The notes: a model not told the origin generated them from the letters alone. 64,000 nucleotides of DNA from Pseudomonadota bacterium (GCA_021825945.1 JAKAFN010000002.1:41915-105914), one strand, 5' to 3'; shown: positions 6,076 to 23,287, numbered from the stretch's first letter. Numbers and translations: made by a program.

Positions 6076-7128
6076 TCACACCGCCGTCGTCATTCGCCAA
6101 CGACAGACGTCGCGTCCCAGCGCGGAAAACTCCTGATCTCCGGCCATCACCGGGGGAATTTCGTCGGGCGTGCCCCGCACCAGGCGCACCGTTCCCGGGT
6201 TGCGCGGCAGGCCGTAGAAATCCGGCCCGAATTCGGAAGAAAATGCCTCCAACCGGTCCAGGGCTCCGGCCTGCTCGAACACCGTGGCATAAAGCGGCAA
6301 CGCGAACGGCGCGGTGAAGCAGCCTGCGCAGCCGCATGCCGACTCCTTGTCCCGTCTTGGATGCGGCGCACTGTCCGTCCCCAGGAAGAAGCGCGGGTTG
6401 CCACTCACGGCCGCGGCCACCAGCGCGCGACGATGGTCTTCGCGCTTGAGCACCGGCAGGCAGTAGTAGTGCGGGCGCATGCCGGCGGAACCATCCGCAC
6501 CCACGAACATCGCATTGCGGTTGTATGCCAGATGGTGCGCGGTGATCGTTGCCGCGATGCGCCCCGGCGCCTCGCGCACATACTCGACGGCCTCCCGGGT
6601 CGTGATGTGCTCGAGCACCACGCGCAGCGCCGGAAAGTCGCGCCGGAGAGGAATCAGCACCTCGTCCAGAAAAATCCGCTCCCGGTCGAATACGTCGGCA
6701 TCGGGCCGCGCCACCTCGCCGTGAACCAGCAAGGGCAGATCGGCACGCTGCATGGTTTCGAGCGCCGCCGTGCAATCGGCGATCGACCGCACGCCGAACT
6801 GGGAATTGGTCGTTGCCCGCGCCGGGTAGAGCTTGACGCCATGGACGAACCCGCTTTCACGAGCACGGACGATTTCCTCCGCCGACGTCGCCCCCGTCAG
6901 GTACAGCGTCATGAGCGGTTCGAATCGCATGTCCGCGGGCAGCGCCCCAAGGATGCGCGCACGATAGGAGCGCGCCTGCTCCACCGTCGTCACCGGGGTA
7001 CGCAGATTGGGCATGACGATCGCGCGGGCGAATGTCCGGGCAGTCCAGGGCAGCACGGCCGTCATCACGGCATCGTCGCGCAAGTGCAGGTGCCAGTCGT
7101 CGGGCTGGCGAATCGTGATCGGTTCCAT
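6076..7128 (-). CDS. pyrC: Dihydroorotase (type II, homodimeric)
   Basis: PDDWHLHLRD, VMPNL, KLYPARATTNS, LVHGE, EHITT, FLGTDSAPH, CGCAG motifs. Confidence 0.97.
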   Translation of the reverse strand: MEPITIRQPDDWHLHLRDDAVMTAVLPWTARTFARAIVMPNLRTPVTTVEQARSYRARILGALPADMRFEPLMTLYLTGATSAEEIVRARESGFVHGVKLYPARATTNSQFGVRSIADCTAALETMQRADLPLLVHGEVARPDADVFDRERIFLDEVLIPLRRDFPALRVVLEHITTREAVEYVREAPGRIAATITAHHLAYNRNAMFVGADGSAGMRPHYYCLPVLKREDHRRALVAAAVSGNPRFFLGTDSAPHPRRDKESACGCAGCFTAPFALPLYATVFEQAGALDRLEAFSSEFGPDFYGLPRNPGTVRLVRGTPDEIPPVMAGDQEFSALGRDVCRWRMTTAV

Positions 7129-7158: not shown

Positions 7159-7878
7159 TCACGGGAAGGTTCCACAAAAATGGTCGCTGTCGATATATAC
7201 AACATCCGGGGCGGATACCGCCTGCACCGGCCGGTCGGCGACCCAACTCACCGCCCCGCAAGCACCCTCGCCCAGGAGGAACGGATGCCAATGTACGCCA
7301 GGCCGCGCCGGCCCCGCTTCCCGGAACCGGATCCGCATCGTCGACGCATCGAGACCGATGCCGAGCGCCTTGCCGATCGCTTCGAGTTCACACCAGTGGG
7401 CGATCGCGTCGACGTCACGCCACCCGAAAGCCCCCTCGCGCCAGGGCCGCAGGAATGCACGTACCGCCTCGGCTGCGCCAAGTCGCACACACTCGACGTC
7501 GATGCCGACGCGTGACTGCGCACTGAACACCGCCGCGAAATGCGTCCCGCAATGCGACAAGGAGCAAAACACCGGTTCTCCGGCAATGCATAGCGTTACC
7601 GGACCCGGACCCGCGGACGCCTCGACGCGCGGCGGCGGCACCCCGAACCAGCGCGCCGCCAGGAGCCGCAGGACGATCCGCCCGTAAACGTAATCGAGTT
7701 TGCGTTGCGCGCGAAGGATCCCACGGGCACGTGCGATCTCGGCCGCAGTCAGCAAACCGACCCACTGCCGTACCACGCGCATGCGATGCCCCGATCGATT
7801 TGCAACGACATACGCGGCCGGCGCCGGGATCGACGTCGATACCGGTCCGTACCTTCCTTGGACGGTACCCATCGGCAC
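7159..7878 (-). CDS. 4'-phosphopantetheinyl transferase (Sfp-like); start uncertain
   Basis: SLSHC, VGIDVE and WCELEAIGKALGIGL match PPTase motifs. Last gene of an ACP-containing operon. Confidence 0.8.
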   Translation of the reverse strand: MPMGTVQGRYGPVSTSIPAPAAYVVANRSGHRMRVVRQWVGLLTAAEIARARGILRAQRKLDYVYGRIVLRLLAARWFGVPPPRVEASAGPGPVTLCIAGEPVFCSLSHCGTHFAAVFSAQSRVGIDVECVRLGAAEAVRAFLRPWREGAFGWRDVDAIAHWCELEAIGKALGIGLDASTMRIRFREAGPARPGVHWHPFLLGEGACGAVSWVADRPVQAVSAPDVVYIDSDHFCGTFP

Positions 7879-7882
7879 GGCG

Positions 7883-9160
7883 TCAGAAGAAGTACCGCGC
7901 GCCGAGCGTCACCCGATTTCCCAGGAGACTGGTGCCGAACTCCGATCCGACGGGACCGGCGGTATGCGTGATCGCCAGCCGGAAATCGGTGTGTTCGGTG
8001 ATGGACTTGATGAGTTCGAACTCCGTCAACGTACTGCCGTCCAACCCCGACAGCACGTTGATCGACGCCTGCCCGCCGTTGGCAAAAACATATTCGACGT
8101 GACAGAAAAGATTGCTCGCCCATGGCAGTTCCAGTGCCTGCGCATCGAGCGCAAGCGCGTCGGCGGCAAGCGCAGGGTTGGCGATCGCGCGATCCGCCTG
8201 CAAGGCCAGATCCCAGTTCCGCTGTTCGGCCTTCGTCATGCCGGAATCGTTACGCTGGAACTCCATGCGCACGCCGATCCCCGGGGAGACGTTCCATTGC
8301 ATCCCCAGCATTGCACGACGATAGAACGCCGGCGACGATCGGCGATCGACGAACACGCTCCCCGTTGGATCCGGCCCGTAGAGTGCCGTCGACAGCATGG
8401 GGAAACGGCTTCCGCGCTGCAAGAAAACCGCGGAATAGACCGAACCTTGCGCCGCCAGCAGGCAGCTTCCGCTGGCGCCGCCACCGAGCGCCATGTCACT
8501 CGGCTTCTGCAACAGACCCAAGGCATGGCAAGCGTCTCCGGTGAATCGCCCCGCGATCAGTCCCTGTTTGATCCCCCGATTGAATCCGGGATTGAGCGCA
8601 TTGAAGGCATACCCCGTGCTGTCGGGCCGATCATCGCTGTAGATCGCCTCCAGCGTATGGTGGGCGTCCCCTACCGAGTAGCGCAACGCCGGGAAGCCGT
8701 TCGACCGGTACGAATAGTCGAAAAAATCGGTCGATGCGATGTTGTCGGTGAGGAAATCCAGCACATGCGCATAAAACCCGTCGTCGAAGGATTCGGTGTA
8801 CTTGCCGATCGTCCACCGGCCTCCCAGGAAGTCGCCGCCGGCCGACAGCATCAGCAGCGATGTCCGCCGAGTCACGGTCGAAAACGCCGTCCCATCCACC
8901 CCTCCGCGATCGACCCCATAATCGCTCTTGATGCGAAACGACATGCCATCGATGGAACCGTCGACGACCACGGCAGCGGCACCTCCCGTCGTCGGAAACC
9001 CGGTCAGCGCCCCCGGATCCGCCACCCGGCGCACTGCGGTGTAACTCCCTTTGGTGACCACGGTCTCGGCGAGGGAAACATCACCGGCGCATACCGCGGT
9101 CGGAACGACGGGCAACAATAGCGACGCCGCGATGACGGCCAGCCTGCCGCATTTGCTCAC
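7883..9160 (-). CDS. Putative outer-membrane beta-barrel protein of the biosynthetic cluster
   Basis: GTG start at 9160 overlaps the upstream TGA (GTGA). Signal-peptide-like N-terminus (LAVIAASLLLPVVPTAVCA), aromatic/Gly-rich strands, C-terminus RVTLGARYFF. Confidence 0.65.
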   Translation of the reverse strand: MSKCGRLAVIAASLLLPVVPTAVCAGDVSLAETVVTKGSYTAVRRVADPGALTGFPTTGGAAAVVVDGSIDGMSFRIKSDYGVDRGGVDGTAFSTVTRRTSLLMLSAGGDFLGGRWTIGKYTESFDDGFYAHVLDFLTDNIASTDFFDYSYRSNGFPALRYSVGDAHHTLEAIYSDDRPDSTGYAFNALNPGFNRGIKQGLIAGRFTGDACHALGLLQKPSDMALGGGASGSCLLAAQGSVYSAVFLQRGSRFPMLSTALYGPDPTGSVFVDRRSSPAFYRRAMLGMQWNVSPGIGVRMEFQRNDSGMTKAEQRNWDLALQADRAIANPALAADALALDAQALELPWASNLFCHVEYVFANGGQASINVLSGLDGSTLTEFELIKSITEHTDFRLAITHTAGPVGSEFGTSLLGNRVTLGARYFF

Positions 9161-9909
9161 TCCGCAAAACCATCTACCGTGAAACGACCCGCGGGGCAAA
9201 TCCCCGGGTCGACCCGGCGGATTTCCAATAGCGTGACCGCGCCGGGATCTGCAGGGTCCATGAACCAGGTTTTGACGATCAGGCGCCGGCCGCCGAGGAC
9301 GGTCGGTCGACCATAGCGGGCGATCTTGAACAGTTTCCCGCTGCCGAGGAAAAAGCGTGCGGCGATCGGCCAGCCGGTCTTGTGATCGACCGTGACCGCG
9401 ATGCGCTGGTATGCACGATGCGTCGTCGTCGCGTGCAGATCGATCACCATTGCGTCGGCGCCGGCAGCCGCCGCTCCGCCTTGCCCTTGCGCTGCGACCG
9501 GCGCCCACGACGCCGTATACCTGCCGACCCAATGCGACCGGGCAAGATCGCCATAACTTGCCTGCCCCAGGATGCGCTCGATCGGCGTGATCGCGATCGT
9601 CCTGCTGCTATGCGGCATGCGTACCCAGACGTTCTGCCCCTGCATCAGGACGCGCTCCGACGCATAGCGCCCGCTCAGGACGTCGATTTCCGCGGCATCC
9701 CGTCCGATGCAGACGCGCATGTCTTCCACACCCCATTTCGCACTGGTCAGGCGGATGCGTAGCTGCCCCTCGGCATTGCCGACTCGAACCCGATCGATCG
9801 CGGCCAGCACGGCGGCGGGATCGGGGGAAGGGATGCCGGCGCCGTGCGCCGGCGGACCCCCGGCAATCAGCGCCGCCGTGACGATCCGGGAAATACGGCG
9901 GTGAGTCAT
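9157..9909 (-). CDS. LolA-like outer-membrane lipoprotein-sorting family protein
   Basis: Signal peptide, VLMQGQNVWVRMP, RILGQASYGDL, YQRIAVTVD, FFLGSGKLFK. Lies next to a LolCDE-type ABC. Start moved to the ATG just after the permease stop. Confidence 0.7.
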   Translation of the reverse strand: MTHRRISRIVTAALIAGGPPAHGAGIPSPDPAAVLAAIDRVRVGNAEGQLRIRLTSAKWGVEDMRVCIGRDAAEIDVLSGRYASERVLMQGQNVWVRMPHSSRTIAITPIERILGQASYGDLARSHWVGRYTASWAPVAAQGQGGAAAAGADAMVIDLHATTTHRAYQRIAVTVDHKTGWPIAARFFLGSGKLFKIARYGRPTVLGGRRLIVKTWFMDPADPGAVTLLEIRRVDPGICPAGRFTVDGFAE

Positions 9910-9910
9910 G

Positions 9911-11101
9911 TCATGTATGCCCGAGTTGATCAATGATGCTCATGCGCCGAACCACGCGCCCCGGAATGCAAGCGATCAGACCGCCGAGCGCGACGAATCC
10001 GAGAAACACCAGCAGCGCCGCCACGGGCGAGAAGACGATCTGCAACGGGTACCCGAGCGAGCGACCCGGAGGAGGCGGCATCGAAATGGCGGCGATGCTC
10101 ACCGCGACGGACAGGATCGCGGCCACCGCAATGCCGATCATCGATCCGACCCCCATCACCATCGCCCCCTCCATCGCCAAACTCGCCTGAATCGATCGCA
10201 TGGGAAACCCGATCGCCCGCAGCACGCCGATCTCGCGGATCCGCTCCATCACGCTCATCAGCAAGGCATTGGAAATCGAGAGCAGCACGACCACGATGAG
10301 GATCAGACCGAACACGGAAAAGATCACCCGGTAGATCGATACGACCTGACCGTAGAACGGATCGACTGCAAACCAGGGCTGCACCGCGAGGTCCGGAAAG
10401 GCGCGCCGCAAATCGCGCTCCATGGCGACGAGCCGATCGCCGTGCGTCAACACCACGACGACTCGGGAAGCACCATCGAGGGCCAGCAACGATCGCGCGG
10501 CCACCAGCGGAATCGTCACTCCGCGCCGATCCAGCGCAGGGATGCCGGTTCGATAGGTTCCGCGAACCGAAAAATCCATGGCATTCAGGACACCATCGCG
10601 ATTCGTCACCAGAACGGTGACCAGGTCGCCGGGATGGATGCGCAATGCCCTGGCGAGGTCCGCGGCCACGGTGATTCCGTTTTTGTCGCCATCGCCGAGG
10701 CCGGTGCCGGAAACCACCGGCAGGAACCCGGCATTCAGACGTGACTCTTTTTCGACATCGACGCCGCGCCCGACGAACGACCCCGTGCGATTCCCCGTCG
10801 CGAGCAGGCCCTCGAAATGGATGCGTTCCATGGCGAACCGGACGTCGGGGTCCTTCCGCAGGAATTCCGATATCCGGGCAGCCTGCGTTCCGGTCAGATC
10901 GCGGTCGGGCGCGGGAGATCGAATCTGCAGGTCGCCGGTTTCACCGTCGATGATCGACTGGCGCAACCCCGCGAAGGATGCCAGGACGAAACCGACGCTC
11001 AGCAGGATCGCTGCGACACCTCCCGCGACGACGGATATCGCGAGGAAGGATCGTCGCCGGTTGCGCAGCGTACTCCGGGCGGCATAGCGCATCACGTTCA
11101 T
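9911..11101 (-). CDS. ABC transporter permease, MacB/FtsX/LolE type
   Basis: RNRRRSFLAI N-terminus, one TM plus a large periplasmic loop, then SVMERIREIGVLRAIGF and three C-terminal TMs. ATGA overlap with the ATPase stop. Confidence 0.87.
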   Translation of the reverse strand: MNVMRYAARSTLRNRRRSFLAISVVAGGVAAILLSVGFVLASFAGLRQSIIDGETGDLQIRSPAPDRDLTGTQAARISEFLRKDPDVRFAMERIHFEGLLATGNRTGSFVGRGVDVEKESRLNAGFLPVVSGTGLGDGDKNGITVAADLARALRIHPGDLVTVLVTNRDGVLNAMDFSVRGTYRTGIPALDRRGVTIPLVAARSLLALDGASRVVVVLTHGDRLVAMERDLRRAFPDLAVQPWFAVDPFYGQVVSIYRVIFSVFGLILIVVVLLSISNALLMSVMERIREIGVLRAIGFPMRSIQASLAMEGAMVMGVGSMIGIAVAAILSVAVSIAAISMPPPPGRSLGYPLQIVFSPVAALLVFLGFVALGGLIACIPGRVVRRMSIIDQLGHT

Positions 11102-11814
11102 TCGTCCAGGACTCCGTCGTGTACATGACAGCAACGGTCGACACGCTCGGTCACGCGCACATCGTGCGTGGCGATCAGAAATGCCGTGCGGGTTCCCTGC
11201 TGCAATGTCGCGAAGCAATCGAGCAGACCGGCTGCCGCAGCCGTATCGAGGCTCGCCGTCGGTTCGTCGGCCAGAACGATGGCCGGTTCGGCGACGAGCG
11301 CGCGCGCGGCGGCAACCCGTTGCTGCTCGCCGCCCGACAATCCGGACGGGCGATGACGCTCACGATGGGAAAGGCCGACCCGCGCCAGGGCGAAACGTGC
11401 TCGTTCCCGGCGCTGCGCGCCGGATAGCGCAGAGTGCAACAGCGGGATTTCGACGTTTTCGAGTGCGTTCAGAACCGGAACCAGATTGCCGCTCTGGAAG
11501 ATGAACCCGATCCGCGTCCGGCGGAAGGTGTCGGCGGCACGCCCGCCAGGCGGAGGCGCGTCGACACCGTCGTAGACGACCTTTCCGGAAGTCGGCGCAT
11601 CGAGCAATCCAAGAATGTGGAGCAGCGTGCTCTTCCCGCTTCCCGACGGGCCGAGCAACGCACACATCTGGCCCGGAAACAAAGACAGCGAAGCGCGCTT
11701 CAAGGCGATCACTTCGTCCACCCGCCGGCGATAGATTTTCGATACGCCGACGGCCGCGACGCAGGGGAGAACTCCGCGGGCCGTGCCGCAGGTTTCCGGA
11801 AGGTCTGCGCTCAC
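11098..11814 (-). CDS. ABC transporter ATP-binding protein (LolD/MacB-like)
   Basis: Walker A GPSGSGKS, signature LSGGEQQRVA, Walker B VLADEPT, ATHD. GTG start at 11814 overlaps the upstream TGA. Confidence 0.92.
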   Translation of the reverse strand: MSADLPETCGTARGVLPCVAAVGVSKIYRRRVDEVIALKRASLSLFPGQMCALLGPSGSGKSTLLHILGLLDAPTSGKVVYDGVDAPPPGGRAADTFRRTRIGFIFQSGNLVPVLNALENVEIPLLHSALSGAQRRERARFALARVGLSHRERHRPSGLSGGEQQRVAAARALVAEPAIVLADEPTASLDTAAAAGLLDCFATLQQGTRTAFLIATHDVRVTERVDRCCHVHDGVLDE

Positions 11815-12437
11815 CGTCCGCTCCAGATCGCATCGGCGACGCCGAACGACGCCGCCCGAGCTGCGTGGAGATATCGCGCGCTTGCCGATGGGTCGCCGGC
11901 GCGACGGGCAAGCACGGCAAGCCACGCCAGCGCAGTCGCCCGGTCGCCCGCGCTCATCGTCGAAAATCCGGGATCGGCATAGGCATGGACGAGGTCCCCG
12001 CGGGCGACCGATTCCTGACCAAAGATCGTGGGAATCTGTGCGCAGGTGATGCCCCGGACCATCTCCACTTCCAGGCGCTGCGTGGCGGGAGTGCCGGCCT
12101 TGGCGACGATATCGGTGGCCTCCCCCATCAAATCGAGCGCCAGATGGAGATTGGCCAAGCGACGCCACGGCAACCATCCGTCGCGCGCCTTCAGCGCAGC
12201 GAGACTTCCTTCATAAACCAGCGGGATCGGGTCCGCGGGACGGGTTGCGGCCACATTGCGGGCGAAGTCGAACGCGGCATCGACGGTCGTCGGGTCCGTC
12301 TTCGCCTCATCGAAGCGCGCGATCATCTCGCGGATCGCCGGATCGGCATGGACGCCATAGCAGGACCCCGGTGCCGGTCCGACGACCGCGACGACCAGCA
12401 CGAAAAACCGCGCGAACACCGTTCCCGGTGTGTCCAT
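11811..12437 (-). CDS. Secreted/periplasmic helical (TPR-like) protein of unknown function
   Basis: GGAGG RBS 7 nt before ATG at 12437. Hydrophobic N-terminal signal and Ala-rich helical body. Stop overlaps the ABC ATPase start. Confidence 0.6.
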   Translation of the reverse strand: MDTPGTVFARFFVLVVAVVGPAPGSCYGVHADPAIREMIARFDEAKTDPTTVDAAFDFARNVAATRPADPIPLVYEGSLAALKARDGWLPWRRLANLHLALDLMGEATDIVAKAGTPATQRLEVEMVRGITCAQIPTIFGQESVARGDLVHAYADPGFSTMSAGDRATALAWLAVLARRAGDPSASARYLHAARAASFGVADAIWSGR

Positions 12438-12471
12438 GAAGAACCTCCGCTGCACTGGAAACATCGGGACC

Positions 12472-14766
12472 CTATGCCGCCTCGACGACGGCGGCCGTCG
12501 CATCCCCGGCGGGAGAGACGTATGCGGCCAAGACGGCACCGCCCTGGCCTCGTTGGCGACGAACCGATCGCACGGCGGTGGCAATGACCGTGGGAAACGA
12601 AGCCGACTGGCCGTGCCCCACCACCGCGCCGATGTCGATCACCGGGATGGACGATCCCCGGAACAACCGGGCAACGACATCCCCGTATTGCCGACGCCAT
12701 AGCCGGGGGCCATGCATCACGGTCACGATCCCACGCAATCCCGCGGCGGCGACCCCCGCGTCCCGCATCGCCGCCGCGACGGCGACGTCGAGGGCACGAC
12801 CATTCGCGCCACCCCCTGCGGCGGCCGTCGCGGTGCTCCGGCCCAAACCACTCAACAGGGCCTGGGGCACGGCGGCGCGCCGCACCATCGCCTCGTGCGT
12901 CTCGAGGATCAAGGCGGTGGCGCCTTCGGAAATGGTGCCGATCGGCGCATCGACCCCGGTTGCGATCGGAACATATGCGGCCGACTGATCGGCGAGAAAT
13001 CGCTCGGACACCTCGTTGGCGCCGAAGACACATAAGCGCTCCTGGTGCCCCTGTCGAACGAAAAGAATGCCCGCGGCAAGGCCGGCATCCCCGCCGACCA
13101 GCGTGGTGTTGAACCCCTTCAGTCCATACGCGATCGAAACGGCCCCCGCAGCGGCGTTCAAGGTGGTGAGGGGAAACTGGGATGCGCTGGCGAACTGTGG
13201 GCCATCATCCATGACGCTGCGCAGGAATTTCTCGACCGCCGTGTGGGATCCGGCCGAAACGGCACCGATCACGCCACAAGGTCCGAGCAGATCGTCCCGA
13301 TCCACGACGATCCCGGAATCGGCGAAGGCGCGTCCCGCCGCGGCCAACGCGAACCGGATGAGGGGAGGGCTGCGTCGGAACGATCCCAGGCGACCTTCCA
13401 TCGACGGCAGCGCGCAGGGCATCGCAGTCGTACTTCCCGGCATCGCCGACACGAAGTCCCGGAGCCCGACCGTCTTGCAAGCGAGCCGTTCGGGATCCGC
13501 GGGAAGACAGTTGCCGACTCCGGTGACGAACGCCCGTCGGCGGATCGGCGCCCGCAGCGTCGGGGGGGCGCGCTTGGACAAAACGACGGAAGCGTTGTTT
13601 CCGCCGAACCCGTACTTGTTGCTGATGAAGGTCTCGTTGCGCGCCACCCCGGGTTCCGGGCCGACGACATTCGCGGGCGCACATCCGGCACGCAGTGAGG
13701 AAAACCTTGCCGTGGGTGCAACGAGTCCCCGTTCCGCGAGCGCGATCGAAACGGCGATCTCCATCGCCCCGCAAGCGCCGAGCGTATGCCCCAGGAATCC
13801 CTTGAGGGAACTGACCGGAACGGCACTTCCAAACACCCGAACCGTCGCAATCGATTCGGGGATGTCGTTGGTATCGGTGCCGGTGCCATGGGCGGAGACG
13901 TAATCCACGTCTTGCGCGACGATGCCGGCATCGCGCAAGGCACCACGCATTGCCGCCTCCAGACCGTCTCCGCTCGCGTCGACCGCGGTTTCATGGAATG
14001 CATCTCCCGAGAGCGCGTAGCCGCGCACGAACCATGCTGCGCGCGCCATGCGGGCCCGCGCGTGACGAGCCGACTCCAGCAACAGTGCGCCGGCACCTTC
14101 GCCAAGCGTGATCCCGGATGGCCGGGAAAATGGCGCGGCGCCGACCGGGCTGACCGCGCGAAGGCTGTTGAATCCCGCCAGGATCGACAGAGAGACCGTA
14201 TCGGTTCCGACGATCAACGCGACCGGGGCCATCCCCGACCGAATGAGGTCGGCACCGATGCCCACTGCGGCATTGCTCGACGCGCATGCGGAAGACACGG
14301 TAAGACGCGGTCCGACGGACCCCAGAACCGTCGTCAGCACGACGGCCGGGTGATCCGTCAGCGAAGCCGCGAAACGGGCCGACCGGGCGGTATCACCTCC
14401 GCGCGAACCCACCGACGAATACATCCGCTCGAGAGAGTGGATGCCGCTATGCGAACTGCCGACCACGATGGCGGCGCCGGCATGCGCAAACGCCGCCGCC
14501 GTCATGGCGCCGTTGCGCAAGGCGCCGAGGGCGGCATGAACGGCATAGCGCGCGCCCGGGTCGCACACGGAAAGATCGACGTCACCGGTCGCAAAGTCGA
14601 AATCCGGCGGAAACTCGACGACGCGATCGCTCGCCAGTCTTGCGCCGTCGAATGTCCGCGCCGATCGGACTCCGTCGCACCGAGCCAGCAGCGAAGAGAC
14701 CAGATCGTCGATCGATCCTCCGAGCGGATGGCAGACCGACATTCCGGTGATCACGACATCGTCCAT
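12472..14766 (-). CDS. Beta-ketoacyl synthase didomain: active FabF-like KS fused to a catalytically degenerate CLF-like KS
   Basis: Domain 1 has VSSACASS (Cys), SAHGTGT (His), SLKGFLGHTLGA (Lys/His) and YGFGGNNAS. Domain 2 starts RRAFVTGVG and has FPLTTLNAAAG but no Cys/His motifs. GGAGG RBS. Confidence 0.88.
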   Translation of the reverse strand: MDDVVITGMSVCHPLGGSIDDLVSSLLARCDGVRSARTFDGARLASDRVVEFPPDFDFATGDVDLSVCDPGARYAVHAALGALRNGAMTAAAFAHAGAAIVVGSSHSGIHSLERMYSSVGSRGGDTARSARFAASLTDHPAVVLTTVLGSVGPRLTVSSACASSNAAVGIGADLIRSGMAPVALIVGTDTVSLSILAGFNSLRAVSPVGAAPFSRPSGITLGEGAGALLLESARHARARMARAAWFVRGYALSGDAFHETAVDASGDGLEAAMRGALRDAGIVAQDVDYVSAHGTGTDTNDIPESIATVRVFGSAVPVSSLKGFLGHTLGACGAMEIAVSIALAERGLVAPTARFSSLRAGCAPANVVGPEPGVARNETFISNKYGFGGNNASVVLSKRAPPTLRAPIRRRAFVTGVGNCLPADPERLACKTVGLRDFVSAMPGSTTAMPCALPSMEGRLGSFRRSPPLIRFALAAAGRAFADSGIVVDRDDLLGPCGVIGAVSAGSHTAVEKFLRSVMDDGPQFASASQFPLTTLNAAAGAVSIAYGLKGFNTTLVGGDAGLAAGILFVRQGHQERLCVFGANEVSERFLADQSAAYVPIATGVDAPIGTISEGATALILETHEAMVRRAAVPQALLSGLGRSTATAAAGGGANGRALDVAVAAAMRDAGVAAAGLRGIVTVMHGPRLWRRQYGDVVARLFRGSSIPVIDIGAVVGHGQSASFPTVIATAVRSVRRQRGQGGAVLAAYVSPAGDATAAVVEAA

Positions 14767-14821
14767 ACGGAAAACACCTCCCCGAATCCGGGTCGAATGA
14801 CGTGTGAACGGCCGGCGATTC

Positions 14822-15562
14822 CTAGCGTTTGAAGCCGCCGTCCACCTTGATCGTCGTCCCGTTCACGTACCGCGCCGCCAGCAGGAACGTCACGGCATCG
14901 GCGACGTCCCCCGGATCGCCGATGCGGTGCAACGACGTGCCATGGACGATGTGCCGAACCATGCCGTCGTCGAGCCGCTCCGTCATCTCGGTCGCGATGA
15001 ACCCGGGCGCGACGGCATTCGCGCGAACGCCGGTCCGACTGGTCTTGCGCGCCAGGAGCTTCGTGAACCCGATCAGCCCGCCCTTGCTGGCCGCGTACGA
15101 AACCTGTCCTTCCTTGCCCACGACTCCCGCCAGCGATGCGATATTGACGATCGATGCGTCGGAACCGGCTCGAAACAGCGGCAGCAGGGCCCAGGTCAGC
15201 CGGATCGTTCCAAACAGGTTTGCTTCCAGCAACGCGGCAATCCGCCCCGTCTCCATCGAAAGAAATGCACCGTCGTCGGTGGTTCCGGCGTTGTTGACGA
15301 TCGCATCCAGCCGTCCCGTGTGCGCGGCGATCGCATCCGCCGCCGCATCGACCGAACGGTCCGAGCGGAGATCCATCCGGACAAAACCGATCGCCGGCAC
15401 CGCGTCGACATTCCCGGCATGGGGCCGATTCCGGTCGACTTCCCCGTGATCGCGGCAGTAGGTGCCGATCACACGCCAGCCGGCGTGCGCCAGCCGGTCG
15501 GCAATCGCCCTACCGATTCCCCTCGTGGCGCCGGTCACCACGACCGTCTTCGGGGTGCTCAT
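14822..15562 (-). CDS. 3-oxoacyl-ACP reductase (FabG-like SDR)
   Basis: TGATRGIG, NNAG, catalytic S and YAASK, VNAV-like RANAVAPGFIATEM. ATGA overlap with the upstream gene. Confidence 0.9.
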   Translation of the reverse strand: MSTPKTVVVTGATRGIGRAIADRLAHAGWRVIGTYCRDHGEVDRNRPHAGNVDAVPAIGFVRMDLRSDRSVDAAADAIAAHTGRLDAIVNNAGTTDDGAFLSMETGRIAALLEANLFGTIRLTWALLPLFRAGSDASIVNIASLAGVVGKEGQVSYAASKGGLIGFTKLLARKTSRTGVRANAVAPGFIATEMTERLDDGMVRHIVHGTSLHRIGDPGDVADAVTFLLAARYVNGTTIKVDGGFKR

Positions 15563-16182
15563 AGATTTCCCTCCGGGAACCCGACGCCCATCGGGATCAC
15601 CAGCCCGGCAAAGCATCGGCAATCCATCTCGCAGAACGTAATGACGGCACACGCAACGGCCGTCGCCGTAACCGGATGAAACCGCAACGCATAGGCCTTG
15701 AGGTCGTCCCGTGCCCCGATCCAGGCGGATTCCGACGCCTGTTCGACAAACGACTGAATGTCGAGGACATTGATCTCCACGCCCATTCGGAACACTTCTT
15801 TCGCCAGGCTCTTGGCCGCGGCGATCCGTGCCCGACTTGCGATCGGCGACTGCGGCAACGTCAGGTAATAGCTGGCGCTGTCCTCCTGGGTCAGGACGAA
15901 TATCTTTCCGCCACCCCGACGAGCCAACACAATCGATGCGTTCCGGATTTCGGTCAGGAACCGCATCATGTCCTCATGGATGCGGTCGACGATTACGGAA
16001 AACTCGTCGTCGTCATCGAGCAGCACGGCCTCGTCGATTGACGGCAGGTCGAACACCACGCAATCGAAGTCGTCGGCGACGGGGATGTTTGCAACACAAT
16101 TCGCGCGCAATCCGCGGGCGGCAGCTTCTGCGAGGATGGCATCGACCAGGGTCGATCGATTTCCCAGGATGGCAAGGTTCAT
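15559..16182 (-). CDS. Degenerate SDR-fold protein (pseudo-ketoreductase)
   Basis: Keeps SDR scaffold remnants (GGGKIFVL, AAAKSLAKE, GVEINVL) but lacks TGxxxGxG and YxxxK. Translationally coupled to the FabG-like gene. Confidence 0.6.
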   Translation of the reverse strand: MNLAILGNRSTLVDAILAEAAARGLRANCVANIPVADDFDCVVFDLPSIDEAVLLDDDDEFSVIVDRIHEDMMRFLTEIRNASIVLARRGGGKIFVLTQEDSASYYLTLPQSPIASRARIAAAKSLAKEVFRMGVEINVLDIQSFVEQASESAWIGARDDLKAYALRFHPVTATAVACAVITFCEMDCRCFAGLVIPMGVGFPEGNL

Positions 16183-16198
16183 GATCGAATCCCCGATG

Positions 16199-17242
16199 CT
16201 AGGAAATCGTTGCGGTTGCATACATCCACGTTGCCGATTCGACGGCCAGGAAGCCGATGCATGCCCCCGGCAGACGGACGGCACCGCGTTCGATGGCAAT
16301 GTCGAGCGCACGGAAGATCGCCGCGGCAGGTGCATTTCCGGTTTCGTCTCCGATGTAAAACCGCTTGGCGTCGAAGACGTGTGTCGCATGGAGTCCCATC
16401 AACGCCGGATTCGCCTGCGGCAACACGACGAGGTCCATGCGATCGACTCCGCCGACCATCTCCAGAAGATCGGTTCGGGCGGCATCGATGACTTCCGGCA
16501 TGATCCGCCGGATCGCCCGATGGTCATGACGACATATGCCATTACACAGCGTGAACCCGGGTCTCCGGTCCGCATACCGTGAGGACACGTTGATCGGGCC
16601 AATCGCGGGGAACCGCGTGACCGTCTCGCCGTGAACCGGCCCGCGCCCGACGACCATCGCCCCCGCGCCATCGGCAAATCCGAGTGCGTTCAGGACATCT
16701 TCGGTCCGGAACGACTTTCGCCCCACCAATGGGGTATAGAACTTGTCGGAAATGAACTCGCTTCCGCAGACCAGAACGCAATCCGCCGCGCCCGAGGTGA
16801 CGCGGTCCCGCGCAATCTTGAGTGCCTGCAGACTCGATGCGCAGCCGCCGCGAACGTCGACGAGGTCGGCGCGACGGATTCCAAGTCGCTTCTGCAGTGC
16901 ATGGGGGAGCGGCGGCAGTTCGGAGTCCGGAGTCGACGTCGCGGTAACGATGAGATCGACATCGTTTGCCATGCATCGGGCCCGTTCCAACGCCCGTTCG
17001 GATGCGCGTGCGGCAAATTCCGTGTTGCAATAGGAGGGATCCCGGAGCCGTCCGGTGCGGGGGTCGACACCGAGGTAGCGGGTTCGTACGCCAAAGAACT
17101 CCATCACCGTTTGCGCCGGGATCGACAGGGCCGACTCGATCTCCGCATTGCCGACGGGCGTTCCGGGCGAATACGAGCCGATCCCGAGAACGACCGCGGG
17201 TACAACCGATTCCGAGGATGCATCGTGTGCAGACGAACCCAT
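16199..17242 (-). CDS. 3-oxoacyl-ACP synthase III (FabH-like), atypical active site
   Basis: GIGSYSPG, IVTATSTPD, GGCASSLQAL (Cys), FADGAGAMVV, GNAPAA (Asn). The HQAN motif is replaced by PQAN. Confidence 0.85.
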   Translation of the reverse strand: MGSSAHDASSESVVPAVVLGIGSYSPGTPVGNAEIESALSIPAQTVMEFFGVRTRYLGVDPRTGRLRDPSYCNTEFAARASERALERARCMANDVDLIVTATSTPDSELPPLPHALQKRLGIRRADLVDVRGGCASSLQALKIARDRVTSGAADCVLVCGSEFISDKFYTPLVGRKSFRTEDVLNALGFADGAGAMVVGRGPVHGETVTRFPAIGPINVSSRYADRRPGFTLCNGICRHDHRAIRRIMPEVIDAARTDLLEMVGGVDRMDLVVLPQANPALMGLHATHVFDAKRFYIGDETGNAPAAAIFRALDIAIERGAVRLPGACIGFLAVESATWMYATATIS

Positions 17243-17253
17243 GGCACCCCCGT

Positions 17254-17544
17254 TCAGGCCGTATCCCCCGCCCGCAGGCGGTGTACGTGTTCGCTGAAGT
17301 CGCGGACGGTGGTGCAGATTCGGGCGATGCGATCGCGGGAGATCTCCCCGAACTTGACCTGAAACAGCAATTCCGCGCCGACGACCAGATCGAGCGCGTC
17401 GACCGAATCCAGACCAAGTCCGCGCTCATCCAGCAAGGGTATGTCGTCGGATATCGACGCCTCGGTGAATCCCAACTCGCCAAGCTCCAGCCGTCCCAGG
17501 AGCAGATCGCTTTTTACCCGCCGCATGATCTCGTCAACACCCAT
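17254..17544 (-). CDS. Acyl carrier protein
   Basis: 96 aa, acidic, with GLGLDSVDALDL (phosphopantetheine Ser) and TVRD. GGAGAAGG RBS. Confidence 0.9.
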   Translation of the reverse strand: MGVDEIMRRVKSDLLLGRLELGELGFTEASISDDIPLLDERGLGLDSVDALDLVVGAELLFQVKFGEISRDRIARICTTVRDFSEHVHRLRAGDTA

Positions 17545-18037
17545 TGCCTTCTCCCCGTTCCGTGTTACTGCGAAAATCGCATGCCGGCGACCACGCCTCG
17601 TGAAGCCACAACTCGGCACGGGCGACTCGCTCTCGGCCGATGTGCGCGCCGCACTTGAATGCGTAGTATTGGGATGATTCCCCCGCCAGCCCCTGGTCGG
17701 TTCGTACCAACGTTGCGCGGAACTGCACGCACTCCCCGGGACGCACGATGCGGTGGAACGTGGCAGAGTCCACCTTCGCCAGGGTGCCGTGGCGGATGGT
17801 TCCATGGCGCGCATTGAGGTAGGCCCTCGACAATTGCGCCATCGCCTCCAGCAGCAAGACGCCGGGCACGATCGGGTCGCCTGGAAAATGCCCCGGAAAG
17901 TAAAATTCGTCGGCGTGGAACAAACGCCGGCCGATGATGCCGCCGGGGTCGTCCAACAGGCTCGCTTCGTCCAGAAAGCGGAACGGATGCGTCTGCCGCA
18001 GCAAGGGAAGTCGTGTCATGGCTCGTCCTGGAAACAT
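17534..18037 (-). CDS. 3-hydroxyacyl-ACP dehydratase (FabZ-like, hotdog fold)
   Basis: HPFRFLD and YFPGHFPGDPIVPGVLLLEAMAQ, with catalytic His and Glu intact. TGATG coupling with the upstream gene. Confidence 0.88.
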   Translation of the reverse strand: MFPGRAMTRLPLLRQTHPFRFLDEASLLDDPGGIIGRRLFHADEFYFPGHFPGDPIVPGVLLLEAMAQLSRAYLNARHGTIRHGTLAKVDSATFHRIVRPGECVQFRATLVRTDQGLAGESSQYYAFKCGAHIGRERVARAELWLHEAWSPACDFRSNTERGEGNGC

Positions 18038-18450
18038 CACGACTCCGCCCGCATGGTTTCCAGACGTGCTAGCGCGATCACCTTCCCGTCTTGGCGCGCA
18101 TGGCATTCGTAGGACGATGCGTTTCCGGTTTGACCCAACCAGCGCGCACAGACGACGACCCCAGGGGGGAAATAGCGTTGCACGAGGAATGCGCCGTCGG
18201 CGATGCGCGTCACATAACCGATTCCGCCGTCGCAGCGCAACGCACTGAGCGTTGCCGCGGCCTGGGCAAATGCTTCGAGCAGCAGAATGTTGGGAAACAG
18301 GTCGCCGACGATTTCCGCAGAACACCAGTCCCGGTTCAGATACATTTCCACGAAGTCCTCCGAGGGAAATCGCGATATGTCGCCGACGATTCGGAATGGT
18401 GGCTTCTGGCGGATCGCGGGGGCATCGATTCGAACCGGGCGGTACGTCAT
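18037..18450 (-). CDS. Degenerate FabZ-like hotdog protein (dehydratase partner)
   Basis: PPFRIVGD and PNILLLEAFAQ retained, GHFP His motif absent. ATGA overlap with the AsnB stop. Confidence 0.65.
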   Translation of the reverse strand: MTYRPVRIDAPAIRQKPPFRIVGDISRFPSEDFVEMYLNRDWCSAEIVGDLFPNILLLEAFAQAAATLSALRCDGGIGYVTRIADGAFLVQRYFPPGVVVCARWLGQTGNASSYECHARQDGKVIALARLETMRAES

Positions 18451-20444
18451 CGTGGTGTCCGCGCTCCAGAGGAGCGGCGCGAAAGACGGGGAATCGGCGT
18501 CACCGTCACGCTTGCCACCTGCGCTTCGATGGTCCGCCGGTGGTATTCGCCCTTTCGGGTCGCAAGGTCGCGCTCGAGCGCAAACGTCGATGACAGCAGC
18601 AACAGCGCCCGTGCGTGGGAATAGGGAAGGGTTGTGCCACCCCGCCCGGCCGTCTTCCGGCGCTCCAGCAGATATTCGCCATGCGGACGCGATGCCCATG
18701 GCAATTCTTCGTTGCCGAGCGAATCCGCGAACTCGTGGAACAAGGGATCGGCGTCGCGGCTTTGGACGAACGCGACATCCGGCGTCAGGTACGATTTCTT
18801 GGGACGATCCACCACGGTGGCCGGCAGGTGATCCCGGTACGCGTCGCGGAGGATTTTCTTTTCCGGACCTTCGCTCGGCAAAACCCACTCCTGCGGCAAC
18901 GATACCGCCAGGGAAACGACATCGGCATCCAGGAACGGGCATCGGTTTTCGATTCCCCAGGCCATGGTCATGCGATCGCCCTGAACCGAAAGCAGGTAAC
19001 CGGCAAGCCGTTTGGAAAGTTCCAGCGCGCGCGCACGCGAGACGGGATCGAATCCGGCGAGATCGGCATAGATCCGCTCCTCGCGTTCTCGGATCCGACG
19101 AAACGCAGCGCCCTGCGCCAGCGTCGATGCCGCAGGCTTGTTGTTGTAATACTGCGGCAGGTGGGAATACAGAAGGTCGTGTCGGTTCGAGAAGCGGCGC
19201 ATCACCAAGCGCATCGCGGCATCGGCGGACTCGCTCCATCCGGTATAGGCTGCCGTGAGATGTGCGGCGATGGCCGCCGCGCCGGGTTGATCGAACGTGG
19301 CGCTTCGAAGGAGCACCTCTTTGAATATCCCATATCCAAGGAAGATTTCGTCCGCGCCCTCACCGCTCAACGCGACGGCGTACCCGTCCGCGTGCAGTTG
19401 GCGCGCCAAGTGATACATGGGGACCGGCGCGACAGTGGGAATCGGTTGCTCGGCGTGATATATCGCATCGCGAAATCCGGCAGCGATCGTCGCCGATGTC
19501 GCCGCGATCCGCCGGTGCACAAGGCCCAGTCGTGCACACACCCTCTCCTGCGCACCGCTTTCATCGTATTCGGTATTCGGGAATGCAATGGAATACGCAG
19601 TGATGCGGCGGGATGAATCGGCGGCGAGTTCCATTGCGATGATCGACGAGTCGATCCCACCGCTCGCCAGCACAGTCACCGGGCGGTTCGCTTGTGCACG
19701 GCGGTGGACGCTCGCTGCGATTCGGTGTCGTACCTCGCGCACCGCATCGTCGCGTGAGCCCGAGTATCGCGGTACCGATCGGCGCCTGCCGGACATTCGG
19801 GATATTTTTCCATTTCGAATCCAGACGCTTTCGCCGGGGCAAACCTGATAGACATTTTGAAACACGGTCTCCGGCGCTGTAACCGCGGACGTCCAATACA
19901 GCGCGCCAAGCGCGTCCGCGTCGTATTGCAGGGAGAACCAAGGCAACGCGAGAAAGGCTTTGGCCTCGGACGCGAACGCCAGCACCGACCCGGACTGCGT
20001 GTAGTAAAGCGGGCGCTTGCCGAGCGGGTCGCGAGTGAGAAGAACGGCTGCGGTCGCGCGGTCGTAATACGCCAGCGCAAATCCGCCGTTGAATCGTTCG
20101 ACCGCACGATTTCCCCATTCGCGCAACGCCGTCAGAACGATTTCGGTATCGCATCGACGCGGAAACATATTGCCGAGTGATCTGAGCTCGCACTCGAGTT
20201 CCGGCCCGTTGTAGATTTCTCCGTTGTAGGAAATCCAGTGTTGACCGCTGTCATCGGACATCGGCTGGCGACTCGCGTCTCCGCCCGCGATCGCCAGGAG
20301 CGCATGGCCCAGGACGCACTGCTCATCATGGACGACCGCGTGCGCGTCCGGGCCGCGATGACCGATCCTCACAACCATTTCACAAACGATACGCACCGCC
20401 CCGGAAGGCAGGCGTGGCGAAACGATCCCGGCGATTCCACACAT
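18447..20444 (-). CDS. Asparagine synthase-like glutamine-dependent amidotransferase (AsnB family)
   Basis: N-terminal MCGIAG (Ntn Cys), HRGPD, NGEIYN, RDPLGKRPLYY, SGGIDSS, SGEGADE, DRMTMAWGIENRCPFLD. Confidence 0.92.
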   Translation of the reverse strand: MCGIAGIVSPRLPSGAVRIVCEMVVRIGHRGPDAHAVVHDEQCVLGHALLAIAGGDASRQPMSDDSGQHWISYNGEIYNGPELECELRSLGNMFPRRCDTEIVLTALREWGNRAVERFNGGFALAYYDRATAAVLLTRDPLGKRPLYYTQSGSVLAFASEAKAFLALPWFSLQYDADALGALYWTSAVTAPETVFQNVYQVCPGESVWIRNGKISRMSGRRRSVPRYSGSRDDAVREVRHRIAASVHRRAQANRPVTVLASGGIDSSIIAMELAADSSRRITAYSIAFPNTEYDESGAQERVCARLGLVHRRIAATSATIAAGFRDAIYHAEQPIPTVAPVPMYHLARQLHADGYAVALSGEGADEIFLGYGIFKEVLLRSATFDQPGAAAIAAHLTAAYTGWSESADAAMRLVMRRFSNRHDLLYSHLPQYYNNKPAASTLAQGAAFRRIREREERIYADLAGFDPVSRARALELSKRLAGYLLSVQGDRMTMAWGIENRCPFLDADVVSLAVSLPQEWVLPSEGPEKKILRDAYRDHLPATVVDRPKKSYLTPDVAFVQSRDADPLFHEFADSLGNEELPWASRPHGEYLLERRKTAGRGGTTLPYSHARALLLLSSTFALERDLATRKGEYHRRTIEAQVASVTVTPIPRLSRRSSGARTPR

Positions 20445-20657
20445 GATCGAACCCTTGATCTCATTGTCCTGTAGCGGCTTGCATCGTCCCGCTCTGCAAT
20501 AGGAGACCGAGACGACGCACCCCGCTGCCCGACGAACGGATGCTCACCAAGTCGATACGGCTTGGGAGCTGCTGCGGTAATCGGTAAAACCGGTGAAACT
20601 GCTGCGGGAGATGATTCGTGCGGATCGCGCGAATCTGTTCTTCTCATTGTTTGCAAG

Positions 20658-20686
20658 ATCGTAGGGATCGCCTATCACTCTGTCAA
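20658..20686 (-). promoter_or_regulatory. Sigma70-type promoter of the biosynthetic operon
   Basis: Minus strand reads TTGACA (20686-20681), 17 nt, TACGAT (20663-20658) in an AT-rich intergenic region, about 205 nt upstream of the AsnB ATG. Confidence 0.7.
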
Positions 20687-20704
20687 TGAATTTGGCGATC
20701 CCTA
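20662..20704. promoter_or_regulatory. 11-bp perfect inverted repeat overlapping the promoter (candidate operator)
   Basis: TAGGGATCGCC (20662-20672), 21 nt, GGCGATCCCTA (20694-20704). The arms bracket the -35 and one arm overlaps the spacer/-10. Confidence 0.6.
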
Positions 20705-22732: not shown

Positions 22733-22900
22733 CGCGTCGTTTCCATGGAAGCTGGACACCCGCACCTTGCGCGCCGCCCCCGCAACCAGGGGAATGGAAG
22801 CGGATTGGCCGGCAACCGGTTCGCCGAACGCGCGACAGGTCGGAAACAGTATGATTTCGGCGATTATCGCGCGTTATCCTTCCTCGCCATCGGAGAGACC

Positions 22901-23287
22901 ATGACGACCATCACCCTACCCGAGGAAGACCCGATGCTGCGCGTCGTGCCCCTGCCCGCCGACGCCAACATGTACGGCGACGTGTTCGGCGGCTGGATCA
23001 TGTCGCAGGCGGACATCGCCGGTGCCATCGCGGCGTCGCGTCGTGCCCGCGGCCGGGTTGCCACGGTGGCGGTGACTAGTTTCGTTTTTCATGAGCCCGT
23101 ATTCGTCGGCGATCTGCTGTCGTTCTATGCGCGCCTCCAACGTGTCGGGCGCACGTCGGTGACGGTCGACATCGCGGTATTCACGGAACGCGGCAATGGA
23201 ACGGGCGAAATCATCCGTGTGACGGAAGCGACGTTGGTATATGTGCACATCGGCCCCGATCGGCGGCCGCGGCCGGTTCCGGAATGA
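22901..23287 (+). CDS. Acyl-CoA thioesterase (YciA-like hotdog)
   Basis: GGAGAG RBS; PADANMYGDVFGGWIMSQAD, ATVAV, VGRTSVTV. Confidence 0.88.
   Translation: MTTITLPEEDPMLRVVPLPADANMYGDVFGGWIMSQADIAGAIAASRRARGRVATVAVTSFVFHEPVFVGDLLSFYARLQRVGRTSVTVDIAVFTERGNGTGEIIRVTEATLVYVHIGPDRRPRPVPE

Follow-up and report, generated by a model that had tools for sequence, protein, structure and literature searches.

A 14-gene type II synthase-like operon with a Lol-like export cassette from an uncultured acid-mine-drainage Burkholderiales bacterium: a candidate pathway for an exported acyl lipid

The final product of the ishigamide system, a highly reducing type II polyketide synthase (PKS), is an amide, and OxyD of oxytetracycline biosynthesis is a starter amidation enzyme homologous to asparagine synthetase B (AsnB). 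Elsewhere, AsnB homologues amidate malonyl- and succinyl-starters carried by an acyl carrier protein (ACP) (bioRxiv 10.64898/2026.04.24.720606). Aryl polyene (APE) clusters combine a ketosynthase (KS) and a chain-length factor (CLF), a FabG-type ketoreductase (KR), the hotdog pair ApeI/ApeP and an ACP with LolA-like delivery to the outer membrane, and contain no enoyl reductase (PMC8253772; PMC8358021). We analyzed a 64,000-nucleotide stretch of DNA (GCA_021825945.1, JAKAFN010000002.1:41915-105914; hereafter the window) from an uncultured acid-mine-drainage Burkholderiales bacterium, in which an earlier note had recognized a 14-gene cluster resembling type II fatty acid synthases (FAS) and PKSs. 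In the order of transcription, genes g01 to g14 encode an AsnB-type amidotransferase, a pseudo-dehydratase (psDH), a dehydratase (DH), an ACP, a KSIII-like protein, a pseudo-ketoreductase (psKR), a KR, a fused KS-CLF, a tetratricopeptide repeat (TPR) protein, an ATP-binding cassette (ABC) ATPase, a permease, a LolA-like protein, an outer-membrane barrel and a phosphopantetheinyl transferase (PPTase). With middling confidence, we consider that these genes form a single operon whose proteins make and export a specialised acyl or polyketide-like lipid; judging by their predicted functions, the most likely product is an acyl chain, unsaturated or polyene, that bears a primary amide and is exported through a Lol-like pathway.

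The 14 genes follow one another without interruption on the minus strand from position 20444 to 7159, as judged from open reading frame (ORF) junctions and from a frame plot of G+C content at third codon positions (GC3). Stop and start codons overlap (ATGA or GTGA) at six junctions (AsnB/psDH, psDH/DH, psKR/KR, TPR/ABC ATPase, ATPase/permease and LolA/barrel), the ACP gene overlaps the 3' end of the DH gene by 11 nt, and elsewhere in the run neighbouring genes lie 1-55 nt apart. These observations, together with Pfam and NCBIfam searches of the 14 proteins, on which the domain assignments are based, confirmed the gene content, order and mostly overlapping arrangement proposed in the earlier note. 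The same searches detected no acyl-CoA ligase (AMP-binding), glycosyltransferase, methyltransferase, enoyl reductase or thioesterase domain in the 14 genes, so that two further claims held: that the ligase, glycosyltransferases and methyltransferase of APE clusters are missing here, and that the KS-CLF, KR, DH and ACP follow a type II logic with no enoyl reductase encoded in the cluster. Each of the 14 genes is intact, at full length and with no stop codon, and dN/dS ratios of 0.08-0.28 relative to the related locus L085 (dS 0.28-0.93) indicate purifying selection on every one. Because their ratios are 0.23 and 0.25, respectively, psDH and psKR are maintained proteins and not decay products.

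Within the synthase core, KS, KR and DH each appear to consist of a catalytic protein or domain paired with a non-catalytic paralogue (the two halves of g08; g07 and g06; g03 and g02). The fused KS and CLF-like protein g08 (12472..14766, 764 aa; this and all other genes of the cluster lie on the minus strand) matches the ketoacyl-synt N and C domains; its N-terminal half has C161, H293 and H327, invariant across the family, and its C-terminal half has the KS fold with no active-site Cys. Scores against proteins of known structure were about equal for FabF (169 bits), Iga11 (163) and ApeO (160). The best matches in the PDB were 9S5H for the KS and 5by7 for the KSIII-like protein, and a search of the literature on entries 9S5H and 5BY7 yielded nothing informative. 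The FabG-type 3-ketoacyl-ACP reductase g07 (14822..15562, 246 aa) matches adh_short_C2 at 5e-53 and has the motifs TGATRGIG, NNAG and YAASK. Its predicted partner g06 (15559..16182, 207 aa), a putatively dead protein resembling short-chain dehydrogenases/reductases (SDR), has neither the GxxxGxG Gly-rich motif nor the Tyr/Lys pair and is conserved in 28 orthologues; it has no Pfam match, and its weak similarity to the SDR 7b73 is restricted to the C-terminal part. We considered g06 as a cryptic enoyl reductase and rejected the idea, as no evidence supported it and both cofactor and catalytic motifs are absent. In the FabZ-type 3-hydroxyacyl-ACP dehydratase g03 (17534..18040, 168 aa; PF07977 at 6e-18), the motif GHFPGDPIVPGVLLLEAMAQ includes both His and Glu, and orthologues match the ApeI-like family PF22818. 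The hotdog protein g02 (18037..18450, 137 aa) is only weakly similar to FabZ, has lost the His of the HFP motif (DLFPNILLLEAFAQ) and would be catalytically dead; one of its orthologues has a weak ApeP-like Pfam match. Both proteins that had been called pseudoenzymes thus lack the residues expected of active ones. The ACP g04 (17254..17544, 96 aa; PP-binding domain, LGLDSVDAL motif) has a dN/dS of 0.09 and is 95% identical to its orthologue in the relative.

The KSIII-like protein g05 (16199..17242, 347 aa; dN/dS 0.08) had been noted as a KS III, and its membership of the ACP_syn_III family and the Cys and Asn of the triad agree with that assignment. However, alignment to Burkholderia FabH (4dfe) placed Pro at the position of the catalytic His244, and the surrounding motif, (V/L/G)PQ(A/V)N, is conserved in 17/17 orthologues, so that the Cys-His-Asn triad of a condensing KS III is incomplete throughout. 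A second motif, H(D/N)H, is specific to the family and lies close to the pantetheine tunnel, at the site of M-x-G in FabH. The catalytic His is likewise absent from 5by7, the best structural match. In FabH, His244 is required for malonyl decarboxylation and is dispensable for transacylation, and for this reason g05 is probably a priming acyltransferase and not a condensing enzyme. Sub-types of the cluster family without a KSIII-like gene have AMP-ligase or extra KS genes instead, a replacement that fits a starter-loading role for g05.

At the head of the operon, g01 (18447..20444, 665 aa; dN/dS 0.17) matches GATase_6/7 and Asn_synthase and retains the N-terminal Cys2 (MCGIAG), the SGGIDSS PP-loop and the SGEGADE motif. 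It scored 399.9 against TIGR01536, for which the cut-off is 267.1. The best PDB matches were the polyketide-acid hydroxyamidotransferase 7ylz and E. coli AsnB (1ct9); both end near residue 377 of 665 and leave the C-terminal third of g01 unmatched to solved AsnB structures. Beyond its orthologues, g01 is closest to long AsnB proteins of a generic kind (35-41% identity), and its identity to the ortholog in the relative is 76%, compared with 93-97% for flanking housekeeping genes. An AsnB gene is linked to the same core in Undibacterium, where it is sister to that of the window, and in the metagenomic locus L083, where it stands at the opposite end of the operon and derives from a different AsnB clade. 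AsnB therefore appears to have been recruited to the core at least twice, which argues for action on the product of the pathway. The Sfp-type PPTase g14 (7159..7878, 239 aa) was recognized from weak ACPS, 4PPT_N and HetI matches and from the motifs GIDVE and WCELEAIGK, and its orthologues terminate the Undibacterium and L083 clusters. Both AsnB and PPTase are found in some family members only and look like accessory add-ons, which the lineage of the window has at the 5' and the 3' end, respectively.

The last part of the operon resembles a Lol-type export system. The LolD/MacB-type ATPase g10 (11098..11814, 238 aa; ABC_tran, PF00005) has LolD as its best NCBIfam match (204 bits, under the cut-off of 308), and the MacB/LolCE-type permease g11 (9911..11101, 396 aa) has FtsX and MacB_PCD domains (PF02687 and PF12704) with a weak lolCE match. 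As both score under the LolD and LolCE equivalog cut-offs, they are paralogues and not the housekeeping Lol system. The predicted periplasmic carrier g12 (9157..9909, 250 aa) has a signal peptide and matches LolA_like (PF17131) with 60.9 bits (cut-off 30). What the earlier note had listed simply as a secreted protein, g09 (11811..12437, alternative start 12464; 208 aa), does have a signal peptide and can now be assigned to the TPR proteins, since its family profile matches consensus TPR proteins at 1e-5 and Pfam detects TPRs in 9/19 family members. Some g09 orthologues have a lipobox, and the family is co-located with the ABC cassette (53 ORFs). These matches, with the barrel described below, bear out the dedicated envelope-export cassette that had been proposed.

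The barrel protein g13 (7883..9160, 425 aa) has a signal peptide and a C-terminal YFF, with no match in Pfam or the PDB at the sequence level. AlphaFold gave a model with pLDDT 84.2 and pTM 0.81 from an alignment of 35 sequences, which was used in place of four near-identical sequences (pLDDT 32.6), and Foldseek matched this model to the 18-strand barrels OccAB3, OccD2 and AlgE (probability 1.00, E ~1e-11, TM ~0.5). The model supports the view that g13 is an 18-strand outer-membrane beta-barrel, in agreement with the original call. The family is small (34 representatives among 1.84 billion sequences). Its positional homologues were missed by jackhmmer, and a profile of four sequences gave a probability of 6.5% against the L083 protein; a deeper profile established homology with the equally placed genes of L083 (hhalign 99.9%) and E. 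coli (96%). In the cultured relative Burkholderiales bacterium GJ-E10 (L088 10001-12727, AP014683.1), the g13 homologue is interrupted by an IS110-family transposase, which leaves pieces of 274 and 271 aa, and the export route of that strain is probably broken. In one metagenome assembly (L084 15592-16866), the barrel gene was annotated as two ORFs (119 and 293 aa), and a metagenome-assembled genome (MAG) at NCBI with an identical KS-CLF has a single gene of 424 aa; the split reflects either a frameshift in the assembly or a difference between strains.

The operon is preceded by an intergenic region of 430 nt that is less G+C-rich and contains a sigma-70-like promoter match, TTGACA-17-TACGAT (20658..20686, minus strand). 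Both hexamers are kept in the relative L084, which is 80% identical, and the match at 20686-20658 was the only promoter-like one between 6000 and 23500. A single promoter for the run, as had been suggested, is consistent with one conserved match in 17.5 kb, although a consensus match designates a putative promoter and is not proof of function. Ahead of the AsnB gene lies a structured 5' leader of ~210 nt (20445..20655, minus strand), conserved with L084, with a fold z-score of -3.3; 0/200 shuffled sequences were as stable. A hairpin was seen within it at 20613-20635. An Rfam search returned no family, and the leader could be a cis-regulatory RNA.

From these assignments, we propose the following order of events. 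The Sfp-type PPTase g14 would activate the dedicated ACP g04, and g05, acting as a priming acyltransferase, would load a starter from CoA onto the synthase. The fused KS-CLF g08 would then elongate the chain in repeated rounds with malonyl-ACP, for which the cluster must depend on housekeeping FabD, and each round would be processed by heteromers of KR and dead SDR (g07/g06) and of DH and His-less hotdog protein (g03/g02). With no enoyl reductase in the cluster, the chain would probably be unsaturated, or a conjugated polyene as in the aryl polyene and ishigamide synthases. The AsnB g01 would form a primary amide from glutamine and ATP, either on a malonyl- or succinyl-type ACP starter or on the released acid. 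The MacB/Lol-type pump g10/g11 may extract the product from the inner membrane and pass it to the LolA-like periplasmic carrier g12, and the TPR protein and 18-strand barrel (g09/g13) may insert or release it at the outer membrane.

The cluster had been described as an orphan, and this description did not survive a search of other genomes: the same core and export cassette are present in many of them, including that of the cultured GJ-E10, and a remote variant is present in E. coli. A protein search returned at least 1,197 relatives of the fused KS-CLF, and a scan of one genome per species returned at least 269 loci with such a relative, remote variants being included in both counts; among the best 120 relatives, nearly all are fusions of 750-880 aa. 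Comparison of 31 loci and the window by tblastn and ORF clustering defined a conserved core, psDH-DH-ACP-(KSIII)-psKR-KR-KS-CLF, which recurs together with the TPR/ABC/LolA/barrel cassette across the Proteobacteria and beyond, in the same order in distant genomes. In the type to which the window belongs, the core is usually followed by a YbgC/FadM-type thioesterase and then by TPR protein, ABC ATPase, permease, LolA-like protein and barrel, as in L090, L083, Sulfitobacter L008 and a Planctomycetales MAG; this usual thioesterase is missing from the lineage of the window. In Pseudomonas, Rheinheimera and Cellvibrionaceae, the export cassette lies upstream and ornithine decarboxylase, acyl-CoA dehydrogenase and AMP-ligase genes are added, and Rhizobiales have a CrtI-like FAD oxidase (amine-oxidase flavoprotein), an ABA4-like membrane protein and a two-component regulator (L012 2866-5317). 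The CrtI-like and ABA4-like genes of Rhizobiales and the acyl-CoA dehydrogenase of Pseudomonas point to unsaturation chemistry. A further type contains a FeeM N-acyl amino acid synthase, an aminomethyltransferase and extra KSs (L086 13903-16207).

A remote type is enterobacterial. Of 5,426 complete E. coli genomes, 383 carry a near-identical copy of its KS-CLF gene, and many of these are O157:H7 or O55:H7 strains; the gene lies within an island that we take to be probably O-island 47. The gene order of this variant is acpS-SDR-FabZ-ACP-aminomethyltransferase-KS-CLF-KS-ATP-binding protein-ABC ATPase-TPR-like protein-permease-LolA-like protein-barrel-FabD. In E. coli 06-00048 (L087, NZ_CP015229.1 1286516-1301309), it adjoins filamentous-haemagglutinin/ShlB genes, ycdU and tRNA-Ser. 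Names assigned by PGAP to genes of the family are generic, also in the E. coli island, and tblastn of plasmids detected remote KS-CLF-like genes with generic names and nothing closer. A search of the literature for this architecture found no paper on it and no characterised product for any family member, in line with the statement of the earlier note that it matched no characterised cluster. We tentatively suggest that the family may represent an undescribed, widespread class of exported envelope lipids, characterized by catalytic/dead pairs of KS, KR and DH, a His-less KSIII-like primer, a five-part export route of ABC pump, LolA-like carrier, TPR protein and AlgE-like barrel, and head groups that vary with lineage (an AsnB amide here; aminomethyltransferase- or FeeM-type groups elsewhere, including O157:H7).

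Four mine-drainage metagenome runs carry near-identical sequence (99% of sampled words), and the one run that was mapped on the window gave an assembler word depth of ~150-210. The G+C content of the window is ~65%. GC3 is 0.70-0.78 in the cluster genes compared with ~0.79-0.86 in flanking genes, and cluster genes are 71-95% identical to those of the relative, below most of the range given above for flanking housekeeping genes; lower GC3 and faster divergence look typical of accessory genes. The closest genomes are uncultured 'Proteobacteria' MAGs (cluster proteins 75-95% identical), and the closest cultured carrier is the acid-river isolate GJ-E10 (77-94% identical, gene order identical). In the MAG relatives and in GJ-E10 the cluster occupies the same chromosomal site, upstream of the PPTase and dihydroorotase genes, and in two MAG loci it also lies downstream of an MsbA/ATM1-like ABC gene; the GJ-E10 locus begins inside AsnB, and its MsbA/ATM1-like side falls outside the retrieved sequence. 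As the site is common to all close relatives, the cluster has been vertically inherited in the lineage of the window, and a search around it found no tRNA and no flanking direct repeats marking an insertion.

Two neighbouring genes were considered as members of the cluster and excluded. The MsbA/ATM1-like ABC gene (20876-22765) is separated from it by 430 nt and the promoter, shows 97% conservation and does not occur in other members of the family; it may conceivably act as a flippase for the product. The hotdog thioesterase at 22901-23287 (plus strand) is YciA-like and not of the YbgC/FadM type of related clusters. It belongs, with a glycerate 2-kinase, to a divergent operon of two genes (22901-24591, plus strand) that is syntenic in relatives and is probably unrelated to the cluster. 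At the other end, the PPTase gene and the dihydroorotase gene (pyrC) share a reading frame and are divided by the TGA at 7159-7161. In L085 (~17570-17580) and GJ-E10 (L088 ~13440-13450), CGG replaces this TGA to give a fused PPTase-PyrC ORF of 595-598 aa; an internal pyrC ribosome-binding site and ATG are conserved in the window, L085 and GJ-E10.

Several points weigh against the pathway as we have drawn it. With no known product for any family member, we infer the polyene, the amide and the destination of the product. Housekeeping FabI, acting in trans, could reduce the enoyl intermediates and yield a saturated chain in place of a polyene. Domain searches and inspection of relatives' loci found no release thioesterase or acyltransferase in the lineage of the window; a MacB-type pump would need its substrate at the periplasmic face, and the cluster has no assigned flippase. 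The H(D/N)H motif might substitute for the missing His of the KSIII-like protein. In addition, AsnB exceeds the NCBI equivalog cut-off for asparagine synthase and its nearest non-orthologous relatives are generic. Finally, contigs from three small metatranscriptome sets of the mine-drainage study, available as contigs only, matched both flanking genes (in run X6, from a strain 95-99% identical, pyrC at 6520-6715 and the MsbA-like gene at 21780-22760) and none of the 14 cluster genes, which is weak evidence that expression of the cluster was low in those three samples.

If FabI does act in trans, the cluster would be a secondary type II FAS whose largely saturated or hydroxylated chain enters an envelope lipid exported by the cassette. 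This is possible, if doubtful: the KS domain is as near to FabF as to polyene KSs, the KR is FabG-like and the DH FabZ-like, FabD and possibly FabI must come from primary metabolism anyway, and variants with the FeeM N-acyl amino acid synthase point to lipoamino acids. However, a CLF partner and a DH pair with one dead member typify reducing type II PKSs, APE synthases among them (PMC8253772; PMC8358021), and both the ApeI-like and ApeP-like matches of orthologues and the CrtI-like desaturase/isomerase genes in variants argue for unsaturation. A divergent APE cluster, which KS, CLF, KR, DH pair, ACP and LolA-like protein in a Gram-negative genome might suggest, is hardly credible in view of the gene content, as ApeH, the methyltransferase, the lysophospholipid acyltransferase-type (LPLAT) protein, the glycosyltransferase, the resistance-nodulation-division (RND) transporter and DUF3261 are absent, the KS and CLF are fused, and a dead SDR, KSIII-like protein, ABC pump, TPR protein and barrel are added.

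The equivalog-level score of AsnB, its complete glutaminase and adenylation motifs and the many family members that lack it would also suit an ordinary asparagine synthetase that is a bystander at the head of the operon, in which case the product would have no amide. We find this improbable, because its stop codon overlaps the psDH start (ATGA), it evolves at the rate of an accessory gene, it is linked to the same core in Undibacterium and, as a separate clade in another position, in L083, and its C-terminal third has no counterpart in solved AsnB structures; the gene context also leads us to doubt aspartate as its substrate. That the cluster is silent or decaying and makes no product in this host would accord with the absence of contigs on it, the IS110 element in the GJ-E10 barrel gene and the loss of the usual thioesterase. 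Against this, 14/14 ORFs are intact and constrained relative to L085, the promoter and leader are conserved, and the RNA data are the small contig-only sets described above, so that we regard such a state as very improbable. Our preferred reading continues to be an operon for an exported, probably unsaturated acyl amide.

The cluster is real, intact and linked to the island of E. coli O157:H7. Other genomes have clusters of this kind, and the chemistry proposed here is conjectural. Should the pathway be correct, it would provide an entry point to a large, functionally unassigned family of lipid/polyketide clusters in Gram-negative bacteria with their own route to the outer membrane, and the AsnB step would add reducing type II systems to those that perform starter or terminal amidation. 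If the family does form a class of envelope lipids, solving one member would assign a function to hundreds of clusters, one of them in a major pathogen. The E. coli O157:H7/O55:H7 relative is genetically tractable, and GJ-E10 and Undibacterium isolates are closer cultured carriers. Among the latter, Undibacterium sp. Ji67W combines AsnB with the core and lacks the cassette for export. The three catalytic/dead enzyme pairs and the His-less KSIII-like primer offer testable enzymology, and, as a speculation, an exported unsaturated lipid could affect envelope stability or oxidative stress in the acid-mine-drainage host.

Among the systems compared, the E. coli O157:H7/O55:H7 island shares a fused KS-CLF, which is 29% identical to g08 over 96% of its length, SDR, FabZ, ACP, an acpS-type PPTase, ABC ATPase, a g09-like protein, FtsX permease, a LolA-like protein and a barrel homologous to g13, but differs in having an aminomethyltransferase, a second KS, an 'ATP-binding protein' and FabD and in lacking AsnB, the KSIII-like protein and the dead SDR. 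The export cassette resembles the Lol and MacB systems (type VII ABC) in its LolD-like ATPase, FtsX/MacB_PCD permease and carrier of LolA fold and lacks their LolB, MacA and TolC partners, whereas its TPR protein beside an 18-strand AlgE/Occ-like barrel recalls the AlgK-AlgE module. Unlike Lol and AlgK-AlgE, it would carry a presumed small lipid and not a lipoprotein or polysaccharide. In starter amidation of the GbnC and glutarimide PKS type, a glutamine-dependent AsnB homologue, encoded beside an ACP and a loading enzyme, converts the free carboxylate of a malonyl- or succinyl-thioester starter into an amide (bioRxiv 10.64898/2026.04.24.720606). OxyD- and GbnC-type systems are, however, aromatic type II or trans-AT modular PKSs; in the window, g01, the ACP and a putative loading enzyme lie in one operon, the nearest relatives of g01 are generic, and amidation of a released acid, as by the hydroxyamidotransferase 7ylz, would be equally possible.

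Like the APE clusters of E. coli (apeA-R) and Xenorhabdus, the window has KS and CLF, here as one polypeptide and not as the ApeO/ApeC heterodimer, a pair of active (g03) and His-less (g02) hotdog proteins comparable to ApeI and ApeP, and a LolA_like (PF17131) protein. By contrast, it has a KSIII-like protein in place of ApeH, the acyl-ACP synthetase for the aryl starter 4-hydroxybenzoic acid (4-HBA), and lacks the LPLAT ApeD, the glycosyltransferase ApeJ and the methyltransferase ApeB listed in the APE gene table (PMC8253772). An ABC/FtsX pump with TPR protein and barrel replaces the RND transporter/DUF3261 set (ApeL/M/N), and the dead SDR, KSIII-like primer, AsnB, PPTase, MacB-type pump, TPR protein and 18-strand barrel are additions. 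The ishigamide synthase (Iga10-13, Iga16; 6kxd) is similar in that an iterative KS-CLF, a KR, a DH and an ACP produce a polyene, and the best PDB matches of the two g08 halves include Iga11 and Iga12; that system differs from the window in being actinobacterial and in having KS and CLF as separate proteins, and g08 is no more similar to it than to FabF. To our knowledge, the ishigamide system has no Lol-like export cassette, no dead KR or DH partners and no AsnB. As far as its predicted enzymes indicate, the cluster would therefore work most like the reducing type II systems for aryl polyenes and ishigamide, and it departs from aryl polyene clusters in starter ligase, attachment enzymes and RND export.

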